The notes: generated by a model from the sequence alone, not told the origin. Positions 11,811 to 64,000 are shown, counted from the stretch's first letter. The stretch is 64,000 nucleotides of DNA from Candidatus Latescibacterota bacterium (GCA_965204725.1 OZ242005.1:5216001-5280000), one strand, 5' to 3'. Program-made: numbers and translations.

Positions 11811-14711
11811 TCAAAACTCCGTGAAAACCACCGCCTCAAGGCGCGAATCCCCTTCGTCAAAACGGTAGGCGTAGCGCATGCCCATATCGAGCGGAATCGG
11901 CAGCGAAAAAGGGTAGAAATTCGTCGTTAGCTCGGCCCCGGTTGATTGGTAGATTGCAGGGGGCTGGGCGTCGTCCTCGCCGCGGCCGTAGTCGTAAAAG
12001 AGATTGGCCTTGACGCGCTTGAAATACAACAACGCCCCCAAGTTCCAGTCCGGGTAAAACAGCGGCAGCGCGTAGCTGACTGCCCCTTGGTAGAAGCGGC
12101 GGTGAAACTCGTACCCGTAGCCGCGGACAAAGGGCTGTTCGCTTGCAAAGCGGTAGGGATGGGCATCGGCTTGGGCTGCGGCCGGCTCCTGTCGTTCGAA
12201 AGCACCCGCCAAGCGCAAGCTGTGGTGGGCCGCCAGACCGGGGACGAGAAACTCTAAGCGTCCCGACAGCAAAGTGCCGTCGTAGTCGCCGGCAAGGGGC
12301 GTGTGGCGGTAGATCAATCGCAGGCTCTGGCCCCACGCCGGGACCAGATCGCGCACCGCCGCCTGACGCCCCCGCCGAAAGGTTAGCTGGTACGTCAGCG
12401 GCGCGAAGCGTCCGTTGTGGTTTTTGGTCACCACATCTTTTACTTCTTGCTTCGCGCTGCTTGCATTGGGCCAGTAGAGGTCGTCCGCGGGCCGGTTGAG
12501 ATGGTTCCGTCCGGCGATATCGATCCATTCGGCCTGTGCGCTCAAACGGGCCACAGCCCAATAGGGGCCGCGAGAAAAATTTAACGGCAGTTCGACGCCG
12601 ATTCGCAGGCTTTTTTCCGTCCACTTATCGGTTATTTCTCGCTCTTGGACCGCGAAGCTGCCGTCTTTGGCTTCCCTCGTTTTGGTCGCGTAGTCTTCGG
12701 CCCGCTCGCCCCAACGCCCGCCCACCCTGAAAACGGGATACCACGCCGCCAAGCTGAAATCGCCTAAAGCACTGAAGGCGCGCTCGTTGCTGTTGTATTC
12801 GACCCCGCCGCTCAGGCTGCTGAGATCGAGCAAGTCGCTGGACAGGAGACTGAGGCCATAGCGCGGCGCAGAGGGTGAGAGTGACCAGCTGTGGATCTGG
12901 AGCAGATGGCCCAGCGGCCGATAGCGGCTCACCGGGTAAGCCCGCTGCGGAATATCCGCCAATACGGAGCCGCCCTGCTCTTGGTCAATCAGGGGTTCCC
13001 AATAGCGCACTTGGCGGTCCGCGCCCTGCTCGACCGGAGTCCAAGCCGCCGGGTCCAAAGCCATGACCGCGATGCGGTAGCCGTCAACTGTGTATTCCTC
13101 GAACCACAGTGAATCGCCGGCCACGGCCGCGTGGCTGGCCGCCAGCGGTCGAGCGGTCACCGCGTAGCGGGCCGCGCTGGGCAGGTGAACGGCGTGGATG
13201 TTGTCGATGCCAGCATGAGGAGCGTCGAACAGCAGGTAGGAACCCCAGAAGACCGGCCAGCCAATGTCGGCGCGGGTGTGCGGTAACACGATCGCCCCGT
13301 TGCCATCGGCCACGGCAATGCGTTCGAGCGCGTTGCCGCGGTCGTCCTGCCGTACCACGGCGATATGACGCCCGTCCTCGGACCATGCCGGCGTGCGCCA
13401 AAACACTCCGTCGGGGGCCGGAAAACGAGCCTGCTCCGCGCCGCTGGTGGCCGCCAACAACACCAAGTGGCAGTGCCGATCCGGTCCGAATTCTATCGCG
13501 GCGACGCGCTCGCCATCGGGGGAAAGAGCGGGGGCGAACAACTTGGCCTTGTGGGTGAGTTGGCGCGTCTGGCCGCTGTCTATATCCAACACCACCACAT
13601 CGGAATAGTCGCGATAGCCCCAGCGCGGGTCCGGGGTGTAGCGGTTCCAGACCAGTTTGCCGCCGGCCGAGCGGATGCCGCCGAGGGATTGGTAAAAGCG
13701 CACGCGCTCTTCGCGGCCGTCGGGGTGTAGCCGCACCAGCGTCGGCGGGTCGGCCAAGCCGTGCTTACTCGCGAGTACGCTGCCATCGGCTAGCGGGTGC
13801 GGATATTTGTAGTTGGTCCAGATGCCCGACCGGCTCTGCCCAGCGAGCACCCGCAACGGCGTCGTGGGCAGGTCTTGCTGCTGCGCTCGCCATAGCCCGG
13901 CCAACTCGTCCATGGTCCGCTCGTACGTCTGGGCGGCACTGTCGCCGGTGTATTTCTTGAGCGCCCGGCTGAAGGCAAAGGGGTGAAAGCCCCAGCGGGC
14001 GGTGCGCCCCATCACTTGGTCCCAGACCTCCGGTCCGTGGCGGCGCTTGACGTAGGTCGTCATAAAATATCCCAACTCGTAGTGGCTGGGGTACCAATCG
14101 CGGTACGATCTGTGGAGGGCCTTGTAGTAGGAATAGTGCCGTCCCGCCAGCAGCAGGGCACGGATGTCCAGCGTGAACCGGGGCATGCGTCCGCGCCCGG
14201 TCTGGCTCAGCGCGGTCTCGATCCCCACCGCATCCCCCTCCCAGAACCACGGCGGTACCAACAAAGCACTCGCCACGGCTTGGCCTTGTTCGCCGGACAA
14301 GACCCACGCCAAGCGGACGAGGCCCCGGCGCATGCGGTCGAACTGCACCACGTGGCGCGTCTCGTGGATCGCCAGCAGTTGGTACCACTCGCCGCTGGAC
14401 AGCCCCGCGTTCTGGGGCGGGGTGCTGAACCACACACTGCGCCGCGGCATCAAGGAGACAAAGCCGTTGGCTTGGGTCGATTGGTTGGCCAGCACGACCT
14501 TTAGCGGTTTTTGCGGCCCCCGTAGCGTTTTGGAGACCGGCGCGTAGATGTGTTCGAGTGTATTGGCCACCCGCTGGGCGTCGGTGGTGATCGCCGCCGG
14601 GAAAACAACCGTGAATCGCTCCGTTTGGATCTGCTGCCAGTCCAAACCGGGCGGGTTTTGCGCGACCGCCGGGCCGACGATCAACGCAACCAGCACGACT
14701 GCTTTTAGCAT
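11811..14711 (-). CDS. Exported protein with a metallopeptidase-like domain, TolB-like beta-propeller and probable C-terminal beta-barrel
   Basis: Signal peptide, HETRH (HExxH) plus WFWEG, repeats PALSPDG/PAWSEDG, aromatic beta-strand-rich C-terminus ending in Phe. Confidence 0.7.
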   Translation of the reverse strand: MLKAVVLVALIVGPAVAQNPPGLDWQQIQTERFTVVFPAAITTDAQRVANTLEHIYAPVSKTLRGPQKPLKVVLANQSTQANGFVSLMPRRSVWFSTPPQNAGLSSGEWYQLLAIHETRHVVQFDRMRRGLVRLAWVLSGEQGQAVASALLVPPWFWEGDAVGIETALSQTGRGRMPRFTLDIRALLLAGRHYSYYKALHRSYRDWYPSHYELGYFMTTYVKRRHGPEVWDQVMGRTARWGFHPFAFSRALKKYTGDSAAQTYERTMDELAGLWRAQQQDLPTTPLRVLAGQSRSGIWTNYKYPHPLADGSVLASKHGLADPPTLVRLHPDGREERVRFYQSLGGIRSAGGKLVWNRYTPDPRWGYRDYSDVVVLDIDSGQTRQLTHKAKLFAPALSPDGERVAAIEFGPDRHCHLVLLAATSGAEQARFPAPDGVFWRTPAWSEDGRHIAVVRQDDRGNALERIAVADGNGAIVLPHTRADIGWPVFWGSYLLFDAPHAGIDNIHAVHLPSAARYAVTARPLAASHAAVAGDSLWFEEYTVDGYRIAVMALDPAAWTPVEQGADRQVRYWEPLIDQEQGGSVLADIPQRAYPVSRYRPLGHLLQIHSWSLSPSAPRYGLSLLSSDLLDLSSLSGGVEYNSNERAFSALGDFSLAAWYPVFRVGGRWGERAEDYATKTREAKDGSFAVQEREITDKWTEKSLRIGVELPLNFSRGPYWAVARLSAQAEWIDIAGRNHLNRPADDLYWPNASSAKQEVKDVVTKNHNGRFAPLTYQLTFRRGRQAAVRDLVPAWGQSLRLIYRHTPLAGDYDGTLLSGRLEFLVPGLAAHHSLRLAGAFERQEPAAAQADAHPYRFASEQPFVRGYGYEFHRRFYQGAVSYALPLFYPDWNLGALLYFKRVKANLFYDYGRGEDDAQPPAIYQSTGAELTTNFYPFSLPIPLDMGMRYAYRFDEGDSRLEAVVFTEF

Positions 14712-14784
14712 CCGCAAGCGCCTTTTGCTCAAAGTGGTTTCACAACTTGCAAGAGGTATGCGTTTTTTTAACTTTTTCCCCGTC

Positions 14785-17118
14785 ATGTATATTTCTCCGC
14801 TTCTCGTGAAAATCTGTCTATCCTGTGCTGTAATTCTCCAACTTTATGCCATAGGCGAGGCCGCTACTCTTACTGTAACTACATTGGATTCCCTGACACA
14901 AGAGCCGGTCAATGGGGTGTTCGTGAATGTTGCAGGATCGCCGTATATGTCAATAACAGACACTGAAGGAAAGGCTCGCCTTGAACTAGCTCCGGGGCAT
15001 ATATTGGTGCAGTACTCCCATATTGCCTATTCCAGCGGTGTTATGCAAACACACCTAGACTCATTAGGTTCGACTCTCCTGATCCTGCTGCAAACCCATC
15101 CAGTTGAAATTCCCGAGGTGATAATAAGCACTTCGGCCAGTACGCCAGAGCAGGGCAAGACCGACATCTCACTAATTGAACTGCGAAGATACCCTACCCC
15201 GACCAATGACCCTTTACGATACCTGAAAGTATTGCCCGGAGTTACCTCGGGCAACGACTTCAGCGGATTATACAATGTTCAAGGTGGCAATTACGACCAA
15301 AACCTCGTGTACATCAACGGGATTGAAATGGAACCACCACTTCTGCTACGGCGGGGTTTGGCGCAGACTCTTTCCATGTTGAATCCTGCAATGATTGATA
15401 GCATGACGTTTCGGACCATCTCTTTTCCCGTGTCGTTCGGAGATAAACTCAGCAGTCTGCTCGATGCCAATTACAAGCTGAATGCGGAGGAAAATAGAGG
15501 AACTTTAGATTTATCAGCAACAACTCAGAGCCTCACACTCCAAGGATACCTCGCTCAATCTCTCAATTTTATTAGCGGCATACGCTATTCCAATCTGAGC
15601 CGAAATTCTCGCGGCCTTCAAATTTCCGGCCAATTCGATCGGCGGTTTTGGGATTGGCAGACTCAGATAAGAGTCAAGTACCCCCGAATCGGCCAACTAA
15701 CACTCTATATGGCAACGCTCAGAAGCACCTTTGGCATGCGGCCAGAGGAAATTTTACTTCGCTACAACTGTCATGCTTTTCGTCAAAAGAGAATATGCGA
15801 TGAGTACCACGGTTTCGCGAGCGGACATGAGAACTTCACTTACGAGGACAATCTTCTCGGAATCTCTATGGAGCGAACAGCAAAACATGGGAGACTCAGA
15901 GTATATACCAATATAGTACACAAGAGAGAAGACGAAGACACCAATGTACAGTACGAAATTGAACCTAATAGTATTCAAAGCACGGAGGCATTCACCAACC
16001 AACTAAAACAGATAAAGGTCGAATCTGCAATAGTCGCATCAAAGGACGTAGGGGGATCACATTTCATAGTAGGGGCCGGTGCGAGATTTCTAAAGATCAA
16101 TGGTAGTGTAAACTCTTTTGAGGAAATTACATACAACCGCGGAAAATTCTTCTCGGAAGGCGTCAACTCAGCATTACAACGCAACTACAATGACAGGTTC
16201 TTCTATCTTCAAAGCCGACGCCAAGCTGGCCGCTTACAGACCGTCTGCGGAGTGCGCATCGCTCAGTTTGGGGCAACCGATGAGACCATTGTAATGCCGC
16301 GAATTAGTGCCAACTATCGGCTCTTTCCTCGTGTATCATGGACACTTGCAGCCGGGCGGTACGCACAACCACCTATATACAAGGAGTTCTTACGAGGTGG
16401 AGCGTCAAGAGAGAGCCTTAAATCTCAACGATCCGAGCAAGTAGGCACTGGGCTTGCCTACGAAATCCAAGAGTCGTTGTATTGGAACACCGAAATTTTC
16501 TATAGGTTCCAGTGGAGAATGATCTCTTACCAAATTGACGATCTTCGAATACGCTATTCAGGTGAGAATGATTCAAAAGGACGAGTCTTTGGGGTGAATT
16601 CGCAACTTAGAGGAAAGCTGAACAGTCTGATTGGAATTGTGAGCTATAGCTACTTGGTAGCGCGAGAGAACATTATTGGAGACGACCACGCCTATCTTCC
16701 GAGAGCAAACGACCAGCGTCATACGTTATCTATGTATCTCGAAGATAGGATGTTCCTAGATGTTTCGCGGATACGTTTTCTAGGGTACTCTCGATTTCAC
16801 CTTCGCGTTTTGTATGGGACCGGCTTTCCACACACACCAAAGGTCGTAGCCGCATCGGAAGATGGCCGCCCACAATTAACTGACGGCCCACGCAACAGGG
16901 TACGAGATAGACCGTATTTTAGATTTGACGTCGGGATGACTCAATCGACTCGCTTGTGGCGGAAGACGCTTCATCTCCGGGAAGAAATAGCAAATGTGTT
17001 CGATCAGCATAACGTCTTAGGCTATTCTTACTTTCCATCGTCAAGTGGAAAGCCAATTGAACTCCGTAGATCGCTAGGGCGTCGGGTTTACAACGTTTCC
17101 GCGTCTATGGAATTTTAA
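14785..17118 (+). CDS. TonB-dependent receptor-like outer-membrane protein with an N-terminal carboxypeptidase-regulatory-like domain
   Basis: DPLRYLKVLPGV, YNVQGGNYDQNLVYINGIE plug motifs, GDKLSS, ANVFD, terminal Phe; visibly lower GC than its flanks. Confidence 0.85.
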   Translation: MYISPLLVKICLSCAVILQLYAIGEAATLTVTTLDSLTQEPVNGVFVNVAGSPYMSITDTEGKARLELAPGHILVQYSHIAYSSGVMQTHLDSLGSTLLILLQTHPVEIPEVIISTSASTPEQGKTDISLIELRRYPTPTNDPLRYLKVLPGVTSGNDFSGLYNVQGGNYDQNLVYINGIEMEPPLLLRRGLAQTLSMLNPAMIDSMTFRTISFPVSFGDKLSSLLDANYKLNAEENRGTLDLSATTQSLTLQGYLAQSLNFISGIRYSNLSRNSRGLQISGQFDRRFWDWQTQIRVKYPRIGQLTLYMATLRSTFGMRPEEILLRYNCHAFRQKRICDEYHGFASGHENFTYEDNLLGISMERTAKHGRLRVYTNIVHKREDEDTNVQYEIEPNSIQSTEAFTNQLKQIKVESAIVASKDVGGSHFIVGAGARFLKINGSVNSFEEITYNRGKFFSEGVNSALQRNYNDRFFYLQSRRQAGRLQTVCGVRIAQFGATDETIVMPRISANYRLFPRVSWTLAAGRYAQPPIYKEFLRGGASRESLKSQRSEQVGTGLAYEIQESLYWNTEIFYRFQWRMISYQIDDLRIRYSGENDSKGRVFGVNSQLRGKLNSLIGIVSYSYLVARENIIGDDHAYLPRANDQRHTLSMYLEDRMFLDVSRIRFLGYSRFHLRVLYGTGFPHTPKVVAASEDGRPQLTDGPRNRVRDRPYFRFDVGMTQSTRLWRKTLHLREEIANVFDQHNVLGYSYFPSSSGKPIELRRSLGRRVYNVSASMEF

Positions 17119-57023: not shown

Positions 57024-57530
57024 CTAGTTTAAGTGCGCGAGAACCTCTGCCGGGGCGACTAAATCAAACTGATTCGAGCCAATATACATGTACTGGATCA
57101 CGCCGAGTTCATCGATGATAAACGTCGCGGGACGGGCAATGCTGTTGCGGAGGTTGCGGTCGGCCAAGCCGATGGAGTTGGACAACGAATAGCCGAGTTT
57201 GTCGGCGATGAACGTCGCCGGGCGGAAAATGTTGTACGCGAAATTGTGAACGGCTAGGCCAAACCAGTGATATACCCCATAGCTTTTGATGACGCTCTGG
57301 TCTGCGTCCAACAGAAGCGGATAGGTGATGCCGCCGCGCTCGGCATATTCGCGCAGTTCGCTGAGCGGCTGCCCGGCGGCGATGGCCATAGACGCTGCGT
57401 TGCGTTGGGTGCATGCGTCGAGGTGTTCTTGCACGGTCGCCAACTGACGACGGCTTCTCCTTCACCAAGTTCCCCGAAAAAACGTCAGGATGACGCGGCC
57501 TTTCCCTCTGCGCCCCGATCGTCTGGGCAT
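57024..57530 (-). CDS. AhpC/TSA peroxiredoxin-like protein with an in-frame UGA (putative selenocysteine), N-terminally truncated; possibly a pseudogene
   Basis: GKGRVILTFFRGTW-UGA(57464-57462)-RRSRRQL continues in frame into YPLLLDAD...YGV...RPATFIID..G.IQY. Confidence 0.7.
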
Positions 57531-57700
57531 GCTTGAGTATCGTCGAGGAAAAGTTGGTCGACGCCAGCGCTAAATGCGCGGCGCTGAGGGGCACCCCATA
57601 GACCGACTCGTCCCAGTTGCCCGAGGAGCGAATCAACCGCCTGACCTGTGTGTGGACCAGCCGGATGCGGACCGACTGCTTCCAACCGTCGGACTGCCGT
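57511..57700 (-). pseudogene. Internal fragment of an MpaB/DUF2236-type (rubber-oxygenase-like) protein
   Basis: Reads DGWKQSVRIRLVHTQVRRLIRSSGNWDESVYGVPLSAAHLALASTNFS; no intact N- or C-terminus. Confidence 0.55.
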
Positions 57701-57759
57701 GTAAATATAGCAATTCTACATCATTCAAGGTTAGCGGGAATCATTTAGGACTGCTATCG

Positions 57760-58436
57760 TCAGTTTAGATGGCGGCCGATGCGGCGGCTTATTGCGTCGT
57801 AGCTCAATCCCCGCTCGTGGATCTGGGCGATCTCGTGGACGATCTGCTTTTCCTTGAAGACGAGTATCCGGCCGGCCAAGCCGATGATCTCCGGCATGTC
57901 CGACGAGATCAAAATGATGGCCTTGCCTTCTTGGGCCGCCAAATCCCAGAGCAAGCGGTGAATTTGGGCCTTGGCTTGGATATCCACCCCAACAGTCGGC
58001 TCATCGACGATCAGGATATCGCAGCCGGCCGCCAGCCACTTGCCCAAGCTGACCTTCTGCTGATTGCCGCCGCTGAGGTGGCCTACTTCTTGGTCCAAGC
58101 CCGTCGTGCGAATATCCAGCGCGGCGACCATGGCCTGCGCGGCTTGGGTCTCGGCCCGGTCGTCAATCCGGCGCGTGAACTTGCCGACGATCCGCTCCCA
58201 TATTGTAATGCCGAGATTGGTGCGAACGGCTGAGTCCAGCAGCAGGCCCTCTTCTTTGCGGTTTTCGGTTACGTAGGCCATCCTGTGTTGGTACAGGCTG
58301 TCGGCCACCGAGCCGATCCGCGCTTTGACGCCGTGGATATAGACGGCACCCCGCTCGGCCGGCTCGGCCCCGACCAAGCCGTACAAGCCCAAAATCTCGC
58401 CCGCGTAGAGCGAAAAGCTCACGCCGTGCGCTCCCG
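57760..58436 (-). pseudogene. 3' half of a sugar (CUT2) ABC ATP-binding gene, truncated
   Basis: VSF....GEILG.YGLVGA, ENRKEEGL, LSGGNQQKV, DEPTVGVD, ISSDMPE; first NBD absent and GRTE segment missing after GLVGA. Confidence 0.8.
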
Positions 58437-59732
58437 TCAACAAGCGGTCATTAGGCCCGCCTGATACCCGCGCCTTACCTCGCGGCAGAACCTTTCGTAG
58501 TCGTTCAGAGATACGGGCCGGTAATGGGCTAAATCGTTGCGGATCTGCCGCGACCAACGCGCTAGGTGGGTCCACCGCCGTTCCCGCTCGAGCTTCGGGC
58601 AGTTCCACAGCAGCGATTCGAGATGGCCCCACTGACAGGCAAAGGGCGTATCTCGCACGGCCTGACGCTCGGTGTCAAGGTCCGGTTCTTGCCACTTATA
58701 GGGCCAATCTCGTCCATACAACCCGTTGAGGTGGGCGCATAACGCCAATCGCGCTTCGTCAATTTGGGGCAACAGCAGGCCAGCCTGACCGCGCCATAAG
58801 CGATGGTCTAAGGCTTCTTGTCGGTTGAGTTGGGCCAAGACCGCGCTGTGGCGTTGTAGGCCGTGTTCTAGCGTCCAATGCACCAGCCCCCGGGCCCAGA
58901 CTTGATACAAAGGAGCGGGCAAGGGCCAGCCCTCCTGCCGCGTCCCTTCTCGGGGCAGACCTTCCATGGACAACGCTTCTAACTCGGCCTTTGTCCAGCC
59001 GCGCTCCTCGGCAAAGGCCCGCAGCACGTCCGCCAATTCGGCACCCGTGCTGTACGCCTGAACCCATAAATAATCACCCAAGCCCAGATCCGACCCCGCA
59101 ATGGCTGGAATCACCCACTCTTTCCAACGGCTCAGGGGCGTAGAATCCTGCGCGGAGGCCAATTGACACAATAGCCGCATTTCCAAGGTCGTCGGGATGC
59201 CCCACCAGACGTGGACCGCCAACAATACATTGGTCGCGGGCGGCGGGGGCGGCACCTTCGACGCTGGGGCGAGGAGACACAGGGCCGGCAGCATTTTGGC
59301 CCGCTCTTCGTCGGTCGAGCGCCGGCCTTGGCACACTTCAGCCCACTGCACCATAAATTGCAGCCAACGCCTTCGGTCGTCTTCAGTTAGCTCGTCAAAA
59401 CCATCGAGAAACAGGACTTCGGGCAAGCCTGCTCGTCTCAGGAGATTCTCTACAGTGCGCGGCGCGGTGGAAGCACCCCAATCTATGCCCAGCGTTTGGG
59501 CCAGAGCCGCCGCAAGCATTTGCGCATCTAACTGGGGCGCGAAAACCTCATGGACCCGCAAATCCCGATATTCCAAACCGTTCAACAAATTCGACCGCAG
59601 CAGGCTGGGGTCCACTCCTTCGGGCAGCAGGCCCAACACGCTGCGACCCGACCGCAAGTCGTCCAATATCCGATCGAGCAGTTGCCGGACCGTGGGCATC
59701 TGTATGAGGGAGGTCGCCAGTCCCAAGCTCAT
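58437..59732 (-). CDS. Hypothetical protein: degenerate P-loop/STAND-like domain plus C-terminal HEPN-like motif
   Basis: GRSVLGLLPEG at the Walker A position, VLFLDGFDEL Walker B-like, RNDLAH at 58541-58524; ATGA overlap with the upstream gene. Confidence 0.7.
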   Translation of the reverse strand: MSLGLATSLIQMPTVRQLLDRILDDLRSGRSVLGLLPEGVDPSLLRSNLLNGLEYRDLRVHEVFAPQLDAQMLAAALAQTLGIDWGASTAPRTVENLLRRAGLPEVLFLDGFDELTEDDRRRWLQFMVQWAEVCQGRRSTDEERAKMLPALCLLAPASKVPPPPPATNVLLAVHVWWGIPTTLEMRLLCQLASAQDSTPLSRWKEWVIPAIAGSDLGLGDYLWVQAYSTGAELADVLRAFAEERGWTKAELEALSMEGLPREGTRQEGWPLPAPLYQVWARGLVHWTLEHGLQRHSAVLAQLNRQEALDHRLWRGQAGLLLPQIDEARLALCAHLNGLYGRDWPYKWQEPDLDTERQAVRDTPFACQWGHLESLLWNCPKLERERRWTHLARWSRQIRNDLAHYRPVSLNDYERFCREVRRGYQAGLMTAC

Positions 59733-62700
59733 AGCGCACCAACCACCCGTCCCAAAACGGACTCAACTTGGTACGCCCCGTCCCTTTTTTCCAAGCATCC
59801 CAAGCGGTACAAAAGCTCCACCGCCGCCTTGCAGTCCTCCAGCGAGAGCGGCGGGTCGCCTTTAACAAACTCGACCAGATCCGCTAAGTCCTCTTCGGCG
59901 ACCTTCGATTTGTACTCCACCAACGTCTGTAAGACTCGGAAAGGCTCCTCCTCCTCTAAAGAAGAGAAGCCAATCTGCTGTACCAACTTGAAGCCTAACT
60001 CCGACTTAGGAAGGTCCATCTCCTCGCCGAGCGTTTTCACGCAATCCCTAGGGTCGTTGTGGTCGCCGCACCGGCGCAAAAGTTCGTCTAGCAACAAAGA
60101 CCATCCCCCGGTCGCTTGCAGGACCGCCCCGCAACACTCGGGCAAATCCAGTTTCCCCGCTTGGTCCAACCGCTGCCGAATTCCCTCTTCATCCCAGCGT
60201 CGCAGAAAAATCAGGTCCACTTGGTCTTCCAAAGCGGTGCATTTAGGAGACTTCAGCCAAGCCCAAGAAGTGGCCGGCTCAAAAAGAAAAACCACCTGTC
60301 GAGGCCGTTGGCGTTTTTTGTTGTGGCTATTCAGGACGAGCCAAACAAATTGGGCCATATTGCCCCCAGTGCCGCGGACCAGACGATAGAACAACGGCTG
60401 CTGTCTGCGGGCGGACGCATCCAACCACGCGACATCCTGATTCGGCCATTCCATGCCACCCATGCGCTTTAAGGCTTGTTTTAATACCTCCAGCCCTAGG
60501 GCTTGGGAGCCAAAAATTAGGCTCACCCCCGATTGTTCGGCTTGCAGCAAACGGCCTTCCTGCACCAGCGTCAAGGGGCTGTACAGGCGTTTTGAGGCAT
60601 TCAATAATATATGCTGGCTATGGGGTATCGATTGGAGCGGCTGAAATGTATCGAGCTCCAGCAGGCGGTTCTCGATGTCCTCTTCAGTGCCCATCAGGCG
60701 GACCAAATTGGGGCTACGCAGCGAGTACTTGTTTTCTGAGTTGCACAACAAGATGCCTAAGCCGACCATTTCGCCGAGCAACCCCCGCAGGGCTTCGAGG
60801 TCAAGGTCGTTGAAGCCTTGCGGGCACCACTCTCGGGCCAATTTTTGCAGCTCGGCCACGCTAAACGACCGAGTATAGCTGTCCGGGGTCTCTTTTTGTT
60901 CGTGAATCATGGCCCAAGCAATGCACTGATAGCGGGAATCGAGCGCGAGCGTCCAATCGAGCCGTTCGCGGATGACCTCCCGCGTTTGCGGCAAGCGATA
61001 TACCGCATCTACATCGTCGAGTTGCACTTTATAGGGAGGGCTGTGCATTTGGTTTTGGGCTTGGAGGCGATGCAGCAGTTCTCGACAGAAATACTGAATC
61101 AAGCCCGGATGGTAGTTGGTGTACGACAGGACTTTGAGCACCGTAGTTTCGTCGGCAAAGCGATAGCCCAACGTCTTCAGGGGCTCGCGCACCAACTCCC
61201 GAGCCGGACGAGCTTCGAGGGGGCCGACCAGTAGGTTGTGGCCGAAATGGGCGAGGGGCTGATTGGCGATGTTCTTGAACCGCTGGACATCGTGCAGCCC
61301 GGCAAACACCACTCTGAAGCGCGACTTCGTGTCTTGGATCAAGGTTCGCAAGCGGTCGACTTCTGGGAAACCCTTTTTGGCATCGGCGTCGAGAAAGCGA
61401 TCGGCTTCGTCGAACAAGACCAGAACCTGCCGCTGCGGCGACTCCGCCATCGATCGCTCAATGCGTTTGATGATGTTGTCGGGTTGGTTCGCCGTTACGC
61501 TGCTTTTTATGAGTTGGTGTTTCTTAAAGCCCTCGCGCAACTTGCTCCACAACGAAGCGGGCTGTTCGCCTGTAAGGGGATCGCCCACCAGCTTGATGTC
61601 CTCGACCCAAGCGAATTGATCGCGGTCGGGCTGGTGAAATTCGCGCTCTACTTGGCGCAGCAAGGCGGACTTGCCCAACTGACGCCCGCCGAATGCGATC
61701 GCACCGCCCGCGCTTTGCAACTGCCGCACCATATCGCCGCGGCCATAGAACATCTCGGGCGGGACATTGCCCGCTTGGAACGGCGTGTAGGGATTGAGGG
61801 CCGCGTAGGGCAGGCTACAGCGCAGGAAGGCGGGAAGGCGCGTGTCGTCGAATCGGGCCAAAAATACCAGCAGGACTTCGTCGAGCACCACCAAAGCCAA
61901 GCCGCGTTCCCGCGCTCGCCGAGCTAAAGAGTCCCGGCGGTGCGAGGTCAAGCGTCCGAGGAAAAAAATCAGCACGGTCTTGGTATCCAGCCCCAGATCG
62001 CGCAAGAAAGCTCCGACCGTGTCGGCACCGGGCCGTTCCCACAAACATACCACGTTATACCGGCCATGCGCTTGCGAACCCAACTGCGGAATCGGTCGGG
62101 CCAAGTCGCCCGCCGAGGCTTCCACCGCGCAATAGACCCCATCTTGGCCCTGCTCTTCGACCCGGACCGCTGCCTCTCCTGCCGATACGTGAAAACCCAA
62201 GAACTCCAACAGGACCCGGACGGGCCGGTGGATTTCTTTGTCTCGTTCCGGTTGGCGTTTGAGCCGGTGCCAAACGCGCAGGGCTGCGACGGCCTCGTCT
62301 CGACGCACTCGCGGCAATTCGCCAAACTGTACGCCAGCCCAAGTTTGGCCTTGCTCGATCAACTCGGACAGTTGATCAACCCCCTTGTCGCTAAGCCCGG
62401 ATTCGATGCCGCGACAAGCGTCTTGAAACTCCTCAAAGACATCGCGCGTGTCGGTGGGGGTAAACCACTCGCTCTTCCATTCGCTTTCGCCTTGGGCAAC
62501 TCCCCGCAAGAGGGCCAAACTCTCTTCCACGACCCGGGTATCGCACTGCCGGATCGCCCGGCGAATAAAGGTGTTGGTGGCTTCGAGCCGCTCGGGTGGG
62601 ATGCGCTGCGCTAGGCCGCGCCGCATTTTTCGCCATTGCGCCGCTAACTCTTGTAGGCGGTCGTTGAGCTTTGCTGTCAAATCCCGTTCAATGTTCTCTA

Positions 62701-64000
62701 ATCGCTGGAATAGCGGTTGGATGTGGATGGAATTTTCAGCATCGGGCAATTCGGCATTGAGGCGGTCGCGTTCTTCTTCGGAAAGCAGGCCATCCACGAT
62801 TCCCTGCTCAATGGCCCCTTGCACTTTGGCGACTTGATCCGCGAGCGCTGCTTGGGCCCCTTTGAGATCTTCGTCGAGCCGATTTTCATATTCTCGGCGG
62901 GCCTCATCGCCCTCCAATGCCTCCAACGCATTCAGCGATGCGTCGGTGAAGCGAAAATCCAAGCCTTCAACTCGCAGCGTACAGGCCGCGCGCAGGGAGC
63001 GTTCCTCGGCTAGCGATTGGCACAACGCCTTCGCAATATCGGCTTCGCGGTCCGCTGCGGGATGGCCCTCGTTGGTCAGGGAGGCTTCGGGGATCCACAA
63101 CAAGCGGTGGGCCAAAGCTCCCTCTAGAGAATCGCTTTCCCGCTTCATCCATGCGTCGCCCTCAACATCGGGTTGTTCCTCTATGCCTAGCATCCCTAGT
63201 ACTTGGCCTACGGCCTGGTGCAAGACGCGACCCAAAGCGGCTTCTTCTTGGCGTGGGTCGGCCTGCATGCGGTCGAGTTCAGCCCGGACTCCGGGCAAGG
63301 CCCCCCGGACGCGATCGAGCAGGTCGTTCACGTGCTCGGACCACCAATTTCCCTTGCTGTCGAGGGCCTGCTGCTGCTCAATGAGGGAACACCAGCGGCC
63401 GGCCAGCCCCACGGCCTCTTCGACGCTGCGAACCAACTGATCAATGGGCCGGCCCATGATGGGTTTCGGGCGGCTATGTCCCAACTCTTGGTCCATCTGG
63501 TGGATCAGGGCTACAATCTGCCTGCGCTCCTTAAAATCGCGCATGTGCTGCCGGACCCGATTGACTTCGGCGGCCTTGTTTTCGATTACCGGCGTGAGTA
63601 GGAGGTGTAACGCCCCGTTCTGGCTCACCAAGTGGTGCAACACGCGGGTTGCCCCCTTAAACTTCAACCGGCTGTCCTTATTGGTCGCCAAGAAGCGACG
63701 GGCCTGCCCAACGGTATTTTCAATGATCTCTTTGTGGTTTTTCTCTCCTGTTACTTCCTGCAGATCAGCGTCCTGCAAAGCATGGCCCGCCGCTGCAAAG
63801 GTGCGGACCGCATCGGCTAGCCCACCCAGCGCGGGATTGATTTCATCCCTTTGCGGGAGCCAGCCGATCAAACCCGTGGTCTGCGGGGCAATCAAGCTGG
63901 GGCGCAGGGCCGCGGATAAGCCCAGCCACTGCTCGAAAGGGGTGTTTTGGGGCGCCCACTCTGAGGCAATTTCCAAAACATCTAGGACGAACTTATCGGT
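59729..64000 (-). CDS. Large STAND/AAA+-type ATPase (>1,420 aa, 5' end outside the window)
   Basis: NPY...PPEMFYGR, Walker A GGRQLGKS (61690-61667), Walker B VLFDEAD, VVFAG, NYHP helical motif, wHTH-like LLGEMVGLGIL; frame stays open to the window edge. Confidence 0.85.
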   Translation of the reverse strand, partial: TDKFVLDVLEIASEWAPQNTPFEQWLGLSAALRPSLIAPQTTGLIGWLPQRDEINPALGGLADAVRTFAAAGHALQDADLQEVTGEKNHKEIIENTVGQARRFLATNKDSRLKFKGATRVLHHLVSQNGALHLLLTPVIENKAAEVNRVRQHMRDFKERRQIVALIHQMDQELGHSRPKPIMGRPIDQLVRSVEEAVGLAGRWCSLIEQQQALDSKGNWWSEHVNDLLDRVRGALPGVRAELDRMQADPRQEEAALGRVLHQAVGQVLGMLGIEEQPDVEGDAWMKRESDSLEGALAHRLLWIPEASLTNEGHPAADREADIAKALCQSLAEERSLRAACTLRVEGLDFRFTDASLNALEALEGDEARREYENRLDEDLKGAQAALADQVAKVQGAIEQGIVDGLLSEEERDRLNAELPDAENSIHIQPLFQRLENIERDLTAKLNDRLQELAAQWRKMRRGLAQRIPPERLEATNTFIRRAIRQCDTRVVEESLALLRGVAQGESEWKSEWFTPTDTRDVFEEFQDACRGIESGLSDKGVDQLSELIEQGQTWAGVQFGELPRVRRDEAVAALRVWHRLKRQPERDKEIHRPVRVLLEFLGFHVSAGEAAVRVEEQGQDGVYCAVEASAGDLARPIPQLGSQAHGRYNVVCLWERPGADTVGAFLRDLGLDTKTVLIFFLGRLTSHRRDSLARRARERGLALVVLDEVLLVFLARFDDTRLPAFLRCSLPYAALNPYTPFQAGNVPPEMFYGRGDMVRQLQSAGGAIAFGGRQLGKSALLRQVEREFHQPDRDQFAWVEDIKLVGDPLTGEQPASLWSKLREGFKKHQLIKSSVTANQPDNIIKRIERSMAESPQRQVLVLFDEADRFLDADAKKGFPEVDRLRTLIQDTKSRFRVVFAGLHDVQRFKNIANQPLAHFGHNLLVGPLEARPARELVREPLKTLGYRFADETTVLKVLSYTNYHPGLIQYFCRELLHRLQAQNQMHSPPYKVQLDDVDAVYRLPQTREVIRERLDWTLALDSRYQCIAWAMIHEQKETPDSYTRSFSVAELQKLAREWCPQGFNDLDLEALRGLLGEMVGLGILLCNSENKYSLRSPNLVRLMGTEEDIENRLLELDTFQPLQSIPHSQHILLNASKRLYSPLTLVQEGRLLQAEQSGVSLIFGSQALGLEVLKQALKRMGGMEWPNQDVAWLDASARRQQPLFYRLVRGTGGNMAQFVWLVLNSHNKKRQRPRQVVFLFEPATSWAWLKSPKCTALEDQVDLIFLRRWDEEGIRQRLDQAGKLDLPECCGAVLQATGGWSLLLDELLRRCGDHNDPRDCVKTLGEEMDLPKSELGFKLVQQIGFSSLEEEEPFRVLQTLVEYKSKVAEEDLADLVEFVKGDPPLSLEDCKAAVELLYRLGCLEKRDGAYQVESVLGRVVGAL

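Follow-up and report, generated by a model that had tools for sequence, protein, structure and literature searches.

We analysed a 64,000-nucleotide stretch of the genome of a Candidatus Latescibacterota bacterium (G000:C1:5216001-5280000, where G000 denotes this genome; hereafter the window, with positions counted from its first letter) and focused on two overlapping genes close to its end, which probably form a self-contained, mobile two-gene conflict system, most likely directed against phages or plasmids. The upstream gene, termed BIG, is predicted to encode a large STAND-like switch ATPase with intact nucleotide-binding motifs, and the downstream gene, termed SMALL, a partner protein in which an ATPase-like module lacking the Walker A lysine precedes a helical, HEPN-like module. 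The two genes lie side by side in several bacterial phyla, are patchily distributed among close relatives, and have entered the same host operon at different points. Labels beginning with L designate individual loci.

Two overlapping genes

Both genes lie on the minus strand, and the BIG frame continues past the last letter of the window. As read from the genome, BIG encodes 1714 residues (59729-64873 in window coordinates), so that it extends 873 nt beyond the window; its true start, at coordinate 64873, is outside the window, and an AGGA precedes this ATG by some 7 nt. The part inside the window (59729-64000, minus strand) covers residues 292-1714 of this STAND-like ATPase gene. SMALL (58437-59732, minus strand) encodes 431 residues. 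On the reverse complement, positions 59725-59736 read CGCTATGAGCTT, in which the ATG of SMALL overlaps the TGA of BIG as ATGA (59729-59732, minus strand), and this reading bears out the overlap described in the initial annotation, which had been made from the window alone.

BIG is a predicted STAND-like switch ATPase

When full-length BIG was compared with Pfam, it matched AAA_22 alone. The C-terminal 844 residues scored 24.9 bits against nSTAND1 (E 2e-5), just below the cut-off of 27.1, which three further homologues exceed (32.6-33.5 bits). Among 28 homologues searched at E<=0.01, 27 match AAA_22 and 14 match nSTAND1, and the score of ATPase_2 in the homologues is sub-threshold (23.4 against 33.2 bits). 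The nucleotide-binding module (residues 1027-1410; 60644-61795, minus strand) contains the Walker A motif GGRQLGKS (residues 1062-1069, with K1068; 61667-61690, minus strand) and the Walker B motif LVLFDEAD (residues 1151-1158, with D1155 and E1156; 61400-61423, minus strand). Both motifs, including the DEAD tetrapeptide, are invariant in 41/41 aligned homologues, and in a pattern search Walker A was found in 120/120 and Walker B in 119/120 homologues; R1198, in the sequence VQRF, is near-invariant.

An AlphaFold model of residues 871-1714, built from 41 sequences (mean pLDDT, the predicted local distance difference test score, 82.3), arranges this module as a P-loop core, a helical lid and a winged helix, the order general to STAND proteins. 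Leipe et al. in 2004 are said to have described this order, core then helical lid and winged helix, as in NLR and APAF-1 modules. In the structure search the core fold resembles archaeal ATPase_2, plant NLR and ORC/Cdc6 proteins, with scores of 14.7 and 13.8 for plant NLRs, about 14 for ORC/Cdc6, 12-13 for TnsC/MuB, 11.8 for BrxC, 11.7 for CED-4 and 11.0 for Avs3; Foldseek concurs. Because the predicted folds, the profiles and the invariant Walker A and B motifs agree, BIG is best described as a predicted active STAND-like switch ATPase. The modelled fold by itself does not tell a STAND protein from an ORC-like AAA+ protein.

The remaining parts of BIG comprise an N-terminal helical domain (residues 1-160), a proline-rich linker and about 650 mostly helical residues, followed by a small alpha/beta domain directly preceding the ATPase (residues ~878-1006; 61856-62242, minus strand), which is delimited by modelled secondary structure and conservation and contains a conserved W-x-R-P. 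No fold match covers this domain. We considered it as a PD-(D/E)xK nuclease and rejected this candidate, as the expected acidic residues are absent from the columns conserved at >=90% and there is no fold match. In the model an alpha/beta part, helices and, at the very end, a hairpin-helix make up the C-terminal region (residues 1415-1714; 59732-60631, minus strand), over which the two-ring AAA proteins matched by Foldseek extend only loosely. A search of PDB sequences with BIG returned no relative, and at least 568 proteins score E<=0.001 in the BIG family search. Some of these relatives carry other modules: a protein on the Brasilonema plasmid pBOCT2 (L026 3744-14003) has complete N-terminal sigma-70 regions 1.2-4, and relatives of more than 3000 residues on Azospirillum and Microvirga plasmids (L027, L037) are annotated "RNaseH domain".

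SMALL combines a pseudo-ATPase with a HEPN-like module

SMALL has no match in Pfam, PADLOC, NCBIfam or PDB sequences, and a PDB search with the profile of its family likewise returned no relative. The family itself is large: 75 proteins were collected by word search, and at E<=0.001 the profile retrieved the representatives of 1335 clusters (50% identity), 404 of them at E<=1e-30. Residues 1-303 (58824-59732, minus strand) are modelled as an AAA+/ORC/STAND-like core with a lid and a winged helix, and the structural matches listed for SMALL all span these residues. At the P-loop position (residues 35-41) the protein reads LLPEGVD and has no Walker A lysine; a Walker B-like stretch, VLFLDGFDE, occupies residues 106-114. 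A canonical Walker A is similarly rare among full-length relatives (at least 380 residues; two sets of 67 and 141, 208 in all), being found in 0/67 and 1/141, or 1/208. We compared the pseudo-ATPase with the BIG core as a possible duplicate of it, and rejected this candidate after the profile-profile comparison found no similarity.

Residues 305-431 are helical in the model, and residues 305-425 (58458-58820, minus strand) form the HEPN-like module. A helix spanning residues 379-402 is closed by an Rx4H motif and followed by a loop and then by a helix at 409-424. The motif, RNDLAH (residues 398-403, with R398 and H403; 58524-58541, minus strand), lies where helix 3, the second-last helix, ends, leading into the loop that precedes the final helix, and this position coincides with that given for the HEPN Rx4-6H motif in the parts of PMC3710099 that deal with it. 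The Rx4H motif is kept in 67/67 and 141/141 full-length relatives (208/208), and R398 and H403 are invariant in 40/40 aligned relatives. The patterns of motif conservation in the aligned SMALL and BIG sequences exceed chance. In Pfam, 9 of 40 SMALL relatives match PF18731 (HEPN_Swt1) at E<=1, the best at 0.009, and a neighbour cluster in the ESM Atlas is automatically named "Swt1-like HEPN". From the motif, the profiles and the model, the C-terminal module is likely to be a HEPN domain, and predictions from sequence and fold support a description of SMALL as a pseudo-ATPase with a HEPN-like C-terminus.

The module can occur apart from the rest of SMALL: it stands alone in a 254-residue Spirochaetia protein (hhalign 99.9%) and is fused to another partner in a 616-residue Roseiflexaceae protein (L024 8723-10573). 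The latter joins it, with no ATPase, to a homologue of the BIG N-terminus (residues 15-160), as seen by hhalign (100%) and by BLASTP (27% identity, E 7e-10). This fusion hints at a possible contact between the BIG N-terminus and the HEPN module. Adjoining the fusion gene are genes for a STAND protein of the NB-ARC/TPR type and for a protein with a NurA domain.

The motifs quoted in the initial annotation all proved to be present as given, namely NPYTPF (1027-1032), FYGR (1042-1045), NYHPGLIQ (1253-1260) and the two Walker motifs in BIG, and the P-loop position, the Walker B-like strand and RNDLAH in SMALL. Folds, profiles and conservation back its domain reading, an active STAND-like ATPase and a pseudo-ATPase with a HEPN-like end, and show the coupled gene pair to be conserved.

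The two genes are linked across bacterial phyla

When SMALL was searched in species-representative genomes, 23 loci were found, and in 21 of these BIG lies immediately upstream; the co-occurrence that the initial annotation had proposed to examine among homologues is therefore present. The two other loci are those of the module-only proteins, the 254-residue Spirochaetia protein and the Roseiflexaceae fusion. By record title the linked loci belong to Latescibacterota (9), Binatia (3), Chloroflexota (4) and Acidobacteriota (2), with one each in Armatimonadota, Entotheonella and Bacillota. The 4-nt overlap of the two genes, according to mechanical calls of open reading frames (ORFs), recurs in 17/21 related loci and likewise in a second copy in this genome. 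The ratio of nonsynonymous to synonymous substitution rates is 0.21-0.27 for BIG and SMALL, compared with 0.07 in the neighbouring binding-protein gene, and sequence comparison indicates that both genes are under purifying selection.

BIG relatives also occur in 28 plasmid records, of which 11 loci were inspected. A tblastn search of plasmids with SMALL gave no match; the family hidden Markov model placed a SMALL-like gene directly downstream of the BIG relative in 3 of the 11 loci, with one further marginal case. These divergent partners are found in Salinibacter (hhalign 98.4%), in Thiodictyon, and in Azospirillum, where the SMALL-like protein is fused to an AAA_33 domain. On the Brasilonema plasmid a PLD-SNF2 helicase occupies the place of SMALL, and the remaining loci among the 11 inspected contain no SMALL-like ORF. 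Because the downstream gene differs among plasmid loci, the BIG-type ATPase pairs with varying partners, as effectors vary in conflict systems.

The pair is a mobile unit of two genes

SMALL is present in 13/168 genomes of the phylum and in 8/31 of the genus, this genome counted, and several single-contig genomes of the genus are without it. The site of insertion can be read from relatives. In 5/5 same-genus genomes without the pair, the gene for a periplasmic binding protein lies about 6 nt from the ATPase gene of a sugar ABC transporter; in this genome and in a relative, L003, precisely these two genes enclose the 6.5-kb pair, with nothing else inserted. Depending on the lineage, the pair follows the binding-protein gene, the ATPase gene or a third one, so that it occupies three differing intergenic positions of the same transporter operon.

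Direct repeats flank the pair in four relatives, with lengths of 36 nt in L003 (4690-4726 and 11325-11361), 79 nt in L006 (4493-4572 and 11354-11433), 51 nt in L008 (3707-3758 and 10587-10638) and 22 nt in L009 (4615-4637 and 11290-11312), and each of the four outscores all 100 shuffles. The repeats duplicate the 3' end of the gene upstream: in L003, L006 and L009 the left copy finishes at that gene's stop codon, and in L008 it starts a few bases past it. Together, repeats and positions look as if a cassette that has no integrase gene had inserted in a Campbell-type or site-directed manner.

The window has lost the right-hand repeat. From a few bases after the SMALL stop codon, a deletion took the first ~267 codons of the transporter ATPase gene, and the remnant at the right flank of the insert (57760-58436, minus strand) lacks these 5' codons and has a 12-codon internal deletion. 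The ORF at 57760-58632 aligns only to residues 268-502 of an intact 502-residue ABC ATPase orthologue, with 89% identity, and the 12-residue deletion covers its second Walker A. The pair therefore does abut gene debris, as first described, with the ABC ATPase remnant followed by an AhpC fragment. This AhpC/TSA fragment, in the decayed stretch 57024-58632, lacks the first ~45 profile positions and contains an internal repeat-like stretch.

A second, divergent copy of the pair is present in the same genome (G000:C1:2608149-2615224, or L029 8149-15224, minus strand). It encodes proteins of 2006 and 352 residues with a 4-nt overlap and the motif RNNLAH (hhalign 97.7%; 26% identity for BIG), and it forms a sharp two-gene island of low G+C content (GC), 0.44-0.52 compared with 0.58-0.65 in the flanks. 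Because this island and the insert described above hold just the pair, we argue that BIG and SMALL are the whole unit. The initial annotation had suspected that upstream components might lie outside the window, and this is largely answered: BIG did continue, for 873 nt, and the insert contains no further gene.

We rejected GC as a sign of foreign origin for the copy in the window. The pair has a GC of 0.593, compared with 0.604 +/- 0.032 for genome windows of equal size, which is the 31st percentile, and a GC at third codon positions of 0.68-0.69, the 16th-19th percentile among long ORFs. The earlier impression that the pair is AT-rich holds only in so far as its GC is slightly below the mean, and the value is not unusual. 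Distribution and insertion sites show the pair to be a horizontally mobile, patchily distributed unit. DNA nearly identical to window positions 58300-64000, with at least half of the sampled words in common, was found in 14 public runs, several of which (two studies) are labelled sponge metagenome and others marine metagenome; none is labelled RNA.

A possible link to defence and a proposed mechanism

Some of the loci are found among defence genes. In the Armatimonadota locus L012 the order is PglZ, BrxL, BIG, SMALL, SIR2, HerA. In L007 a type I restriction-modification methylase lies downstream, a homologue of which (the same ORF cluster, c7) is also downstream in L019 and L022, and the Entotheonella locus L013 contains a MADS-like gene. 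When 40 other neighbouring ORFs were searched with PADLOC, matches to BrxA, a Dsr2-like protein, a type I specificity subunit and a MADS-like protein were obtained. A defence-island context is suggestive for these loci.

We infer from the observations above that BIG and SMALL bind each other, that SMALL is an RNase, and that a trigger from an invader sets off a defence. In the proposed mechanism, BIG would act as an ATP-dependent STAND/NLR-like switch that assembles on ATP, with the invader cue sensed by its ~1000-residue N-terminal part, by its C-terminal part, or by both. SMALL would be co-produced with BIG through translational coupling, and its dead-ATPase and winged-helix module would be the adaptor through which it enters the BIG assembly. 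Oligomerisation might then gather the HEPN modules into an active RNase, and cleavage of RNA by the gathered modules would stop growth or infection. A prediction of the complex between BIG 1027-1714 and SMALL 1-303 gave a score of 0.00 and the tool's verdict "no answer", which is neither for nor against such binding.

Several observations weigh against the reading of the pair as a conflict system with a HEPN effector. At the level of domains, the SMALL protein of the window has itself no Pfam HEPN match, and the module, although likely to be HEPN, was folded and searched only as part of the whole protein. BIG and SMALL have no profile similarity to each other (hhalign probability 0.9%), and residues 1-300 of SMALL hold no Arg conserved at >=90%, so that a shared ring with arginine fingers is unsupported from the SMALL side. 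With regard to context, Pfam finds many housekeeping genes among the same neighbouring ORFs, and the pair is inside or beside the sugar ABC-transporter operon in 6 Latescibacterota loci as well as in the window. In PADLOC-DB 2.0.0 the best match of BIG is SspC (E 0.0013) and SMALL has none; an NCBIfam scan of both proteins gave no match, and tblastn of BIG and SMALL against phage records gave none either. Finally, in L003, L011, L016 and L022 the BIG gene is broken up into two or three ORFs, and in L010 there is a shift near its end; these irregularities may reflect assembly errors or decay.

A wider joint reading, which we offer tentatively and regard as possible rather than probable when all its parts are taken together, is that the pair exemplifies a widespread, unnamed immune design in which a weaponless giant NLR-like ATPase would recruit a HEPN-bearing pseudo-NLR adaptor. 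By analogy, paired sensor/helper NLRs might here have their counterpart in bacteria. The same joint reading would have a promoter-less two-gene cassette enter host operons, with recombination duplicating the 3' end of the upstream gene, and would take the Roseiflexaceae fusion to mark a contact of the BIG N-terminus that restrains the RNase.

Alternative explanations

Among the alternatives, the one that survives best is that the pair is a member of the nSTAND2 two-gene system and that divergence makes the Pfam model miss it; we consider this unlikely. The passages on this system in Kaur, Iyer, Burroughs and Aravind (eLife 2021; PMC8195603) describe, as a computational prediction only, a mobile operon of two genes, each of them for an "nSTAND2" NTPase; one of the two proteins has eroded motifs and is most often fused to GT4 or HEPN. 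This design, an active STAND protein together with an eroded one carrying such an effector, matches our pair. However, the Pfam nSTAND2 model (PF20702), for which there was no positive control, gave no match at E<=10 anywhere in the genome; neither BIG nor SMALL hits it at E<=1, and it is absent both from the 12 families matched by 40 SMALL relatives at E<=1 and from the 11 families matched by 28 BIG relatives at E<=0.01. A further search with PF20702 of five plasmid records with BIG relatives also gave no match; the controls were silent too, and hence this search is uninformative. BIG scores on nSTAND1 instead, with ATPase_2 as its other nearest family, and BIG and SMALL are not detectably one family or paralogous, as noted above. 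The ATPase-like part of SMALL has no Arg conserved at >=90%, and BIG has the near-invariant R1198; the same passages of PMC8195603 report an arginine finger in both proteins. DAP3/mS29, a near relative of nSTAND2 according to that paper's account of the family, is outside the 50 best structural matches.

It is rather improbable, in our judgement, that the HEPN module is an RNA-binding sensor or regulator, with the harmful activity residing in BIG (in its N-terminal 1000 residues or its alpha/beta domain) or in a host factor. Large parts of BIG are without a domain match, its relatives carry other N-terminal modules (sigma-70 in Brasilonema, "RNaseH domain" in Azospirillum and Microvirga), and PMC8195603, where it treats inactive STAND modules, proposes them as nucleic-acid receptors. 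Against an effector in BIG stand the retention of R and H of the Rx4H motif in every full-length SMALL relative (208/208), which fits catalysis, and the movement of the HEPN module into other proteins, as effector modules do.

A selfish, addiction-type cassette resembling a toxin-antitoxin system, which would see to its own persistence and confer no protection against invaders, is much less probable again. A mobile, promoter-poor unit of two genes with a predicted RNase is what such a cassette would look like; the pair is also intact while the neighbouring operon has decayed, and it has plasmid-borne relatives. The design fits sensor-switch systems, however, and some of the loci are defence islands. 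To our knowledge, an ATPase of 1714 residues far exceeds known antitoxins in size.

That the pair is a housekeeping regulator of the surrounding sugar ABC-transporter operon, among whose genes it stands in the window, L003, L004, L006, L008 and L009 (at three positions), is scarcely credible, given that the operon is uninterrupted in 5/5 relatives without the pair, that the pair is present in just 13/168 genomes of the phylum and has unrelated neighbours in other phyla, and that the transporter ATPase is a remnant here while the pair is intact.

Other features near the pair and elsewhere in the window

Two further regions were noted. At window positions 14548-17118 (plus strand) the GC is 0.47, compared with ~0.61, and the region coincides with an ORF of 856 residues; by eye this ORF resembles an outer-membrane beta-barrel receptor, and it may be another horizontally acquired gene. 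From window coordinate 66977 onward (L002 10977-19486, outside the window), just past the binding-protein gene, there are four tandem paralogues of 637-857 residues with F5/8 type C, FlgD-Ig and CHU_C domains, the last being a type IX secretion signal.

Significance and comparison with known systems

STAND/NLR proteins are central to plant, animal and bacterial immunity, and the bacterial STAND proteins studied to date carry sensor, switch and effector on a single chain. An effector placed on a dead-ATPase partner would offer a simple bacterial model of the co-assembly of active and inactive NLR-like proteins, and the same model could address how assembly activates a HEPN RNase. Because the design is absent from PADLOC 2.0, and is predicted by comparative genomics only, defence annotation would miss the pair. 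Separately, the entry of the cassette into operons, accompanied by duplicated gene ends, offers a lead on the spread of defence genes in uncultured sponge-associated bacteria.

In Avs/AVAST and bNACHT proteins the effector is on the same chain as the ATPase. The present pair differs from these single-chain relatives in that its effector is on a separate pseudo-ATPase, and no PADLOC Avs or Brx model and no Pfam NACHT model matches BIG or SMALL. The archaeal ATPase_2 proteins (PDB 2qen, 2fna) are small single-module proteins whose role is unknown, unlike BIG.

A closer likeness in the effector is found in the Hma/BREX-related type 1 systems, for which Table 1 of PMC3710099 and the relevant part of PMC12839542 give a DUF499 ATPase fused to a Swt1-like HEPN (the Ava_2192 type). 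In both cases a HEPN domain of the Swt1/Abi2 clade would be joined to an AAA+-type ATPase in a conflict system. In the Hma/DUF499 proteins, however, the HEPN is N-terminal on an active ATPase and is accompanied by a helicase and a methylase, whereas in SMALL the HEPN-like module occupies the C-terminus of a dead ATPase, and there is no DUF499 match.

For the pairing of an active with an inactive ATPase, BREX is a solved precedent: PMC12839542, in its structural account, describes an active ORC/STAND-like ATPase (BrxC) with an inactive STAND partner (BrxB), and the BREX structures PDB 9zll and 9zdx are among our structural matches. In the description of BrxB in PMC8195603, this protein has no helical lid and is capped by a beta-sheet. 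Unlike BrxB, SMALL retains both lid and winged helix in the model and is fused to a HEPN-like module; unlike BREX, the unit contains neither a methylase nor PglZ and has no PADLOC Brx match.

Our search of the literature found no experimental study of a pair of the BIG/SMALL type and one close prediction, the nSTAND2 system. The statement in the initial annotation that this is not a named system is therefore correct with respect to PADLOC 2.0 and needs qualification with respect to PMC8195603, where the passages on nSTAND2 predict the same design. The pair resembles that system in the adjacency of active and inactive STAND modules within a mobile two-gene operon, and in the variable effector on the inactive partner, which is HEPN-like here and an AAA_33 fusion in a relative; it differs further in the extra N-terminal region of about 1000 residues in BIG. 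Conserved and mobile, this module of two genes has a design that was already predicted in print, which lowers its novelty. It appears to follow the same design as the published nSTAND2 prediction and to be distinct from it at the level of protein family, as far as profile tests reach.

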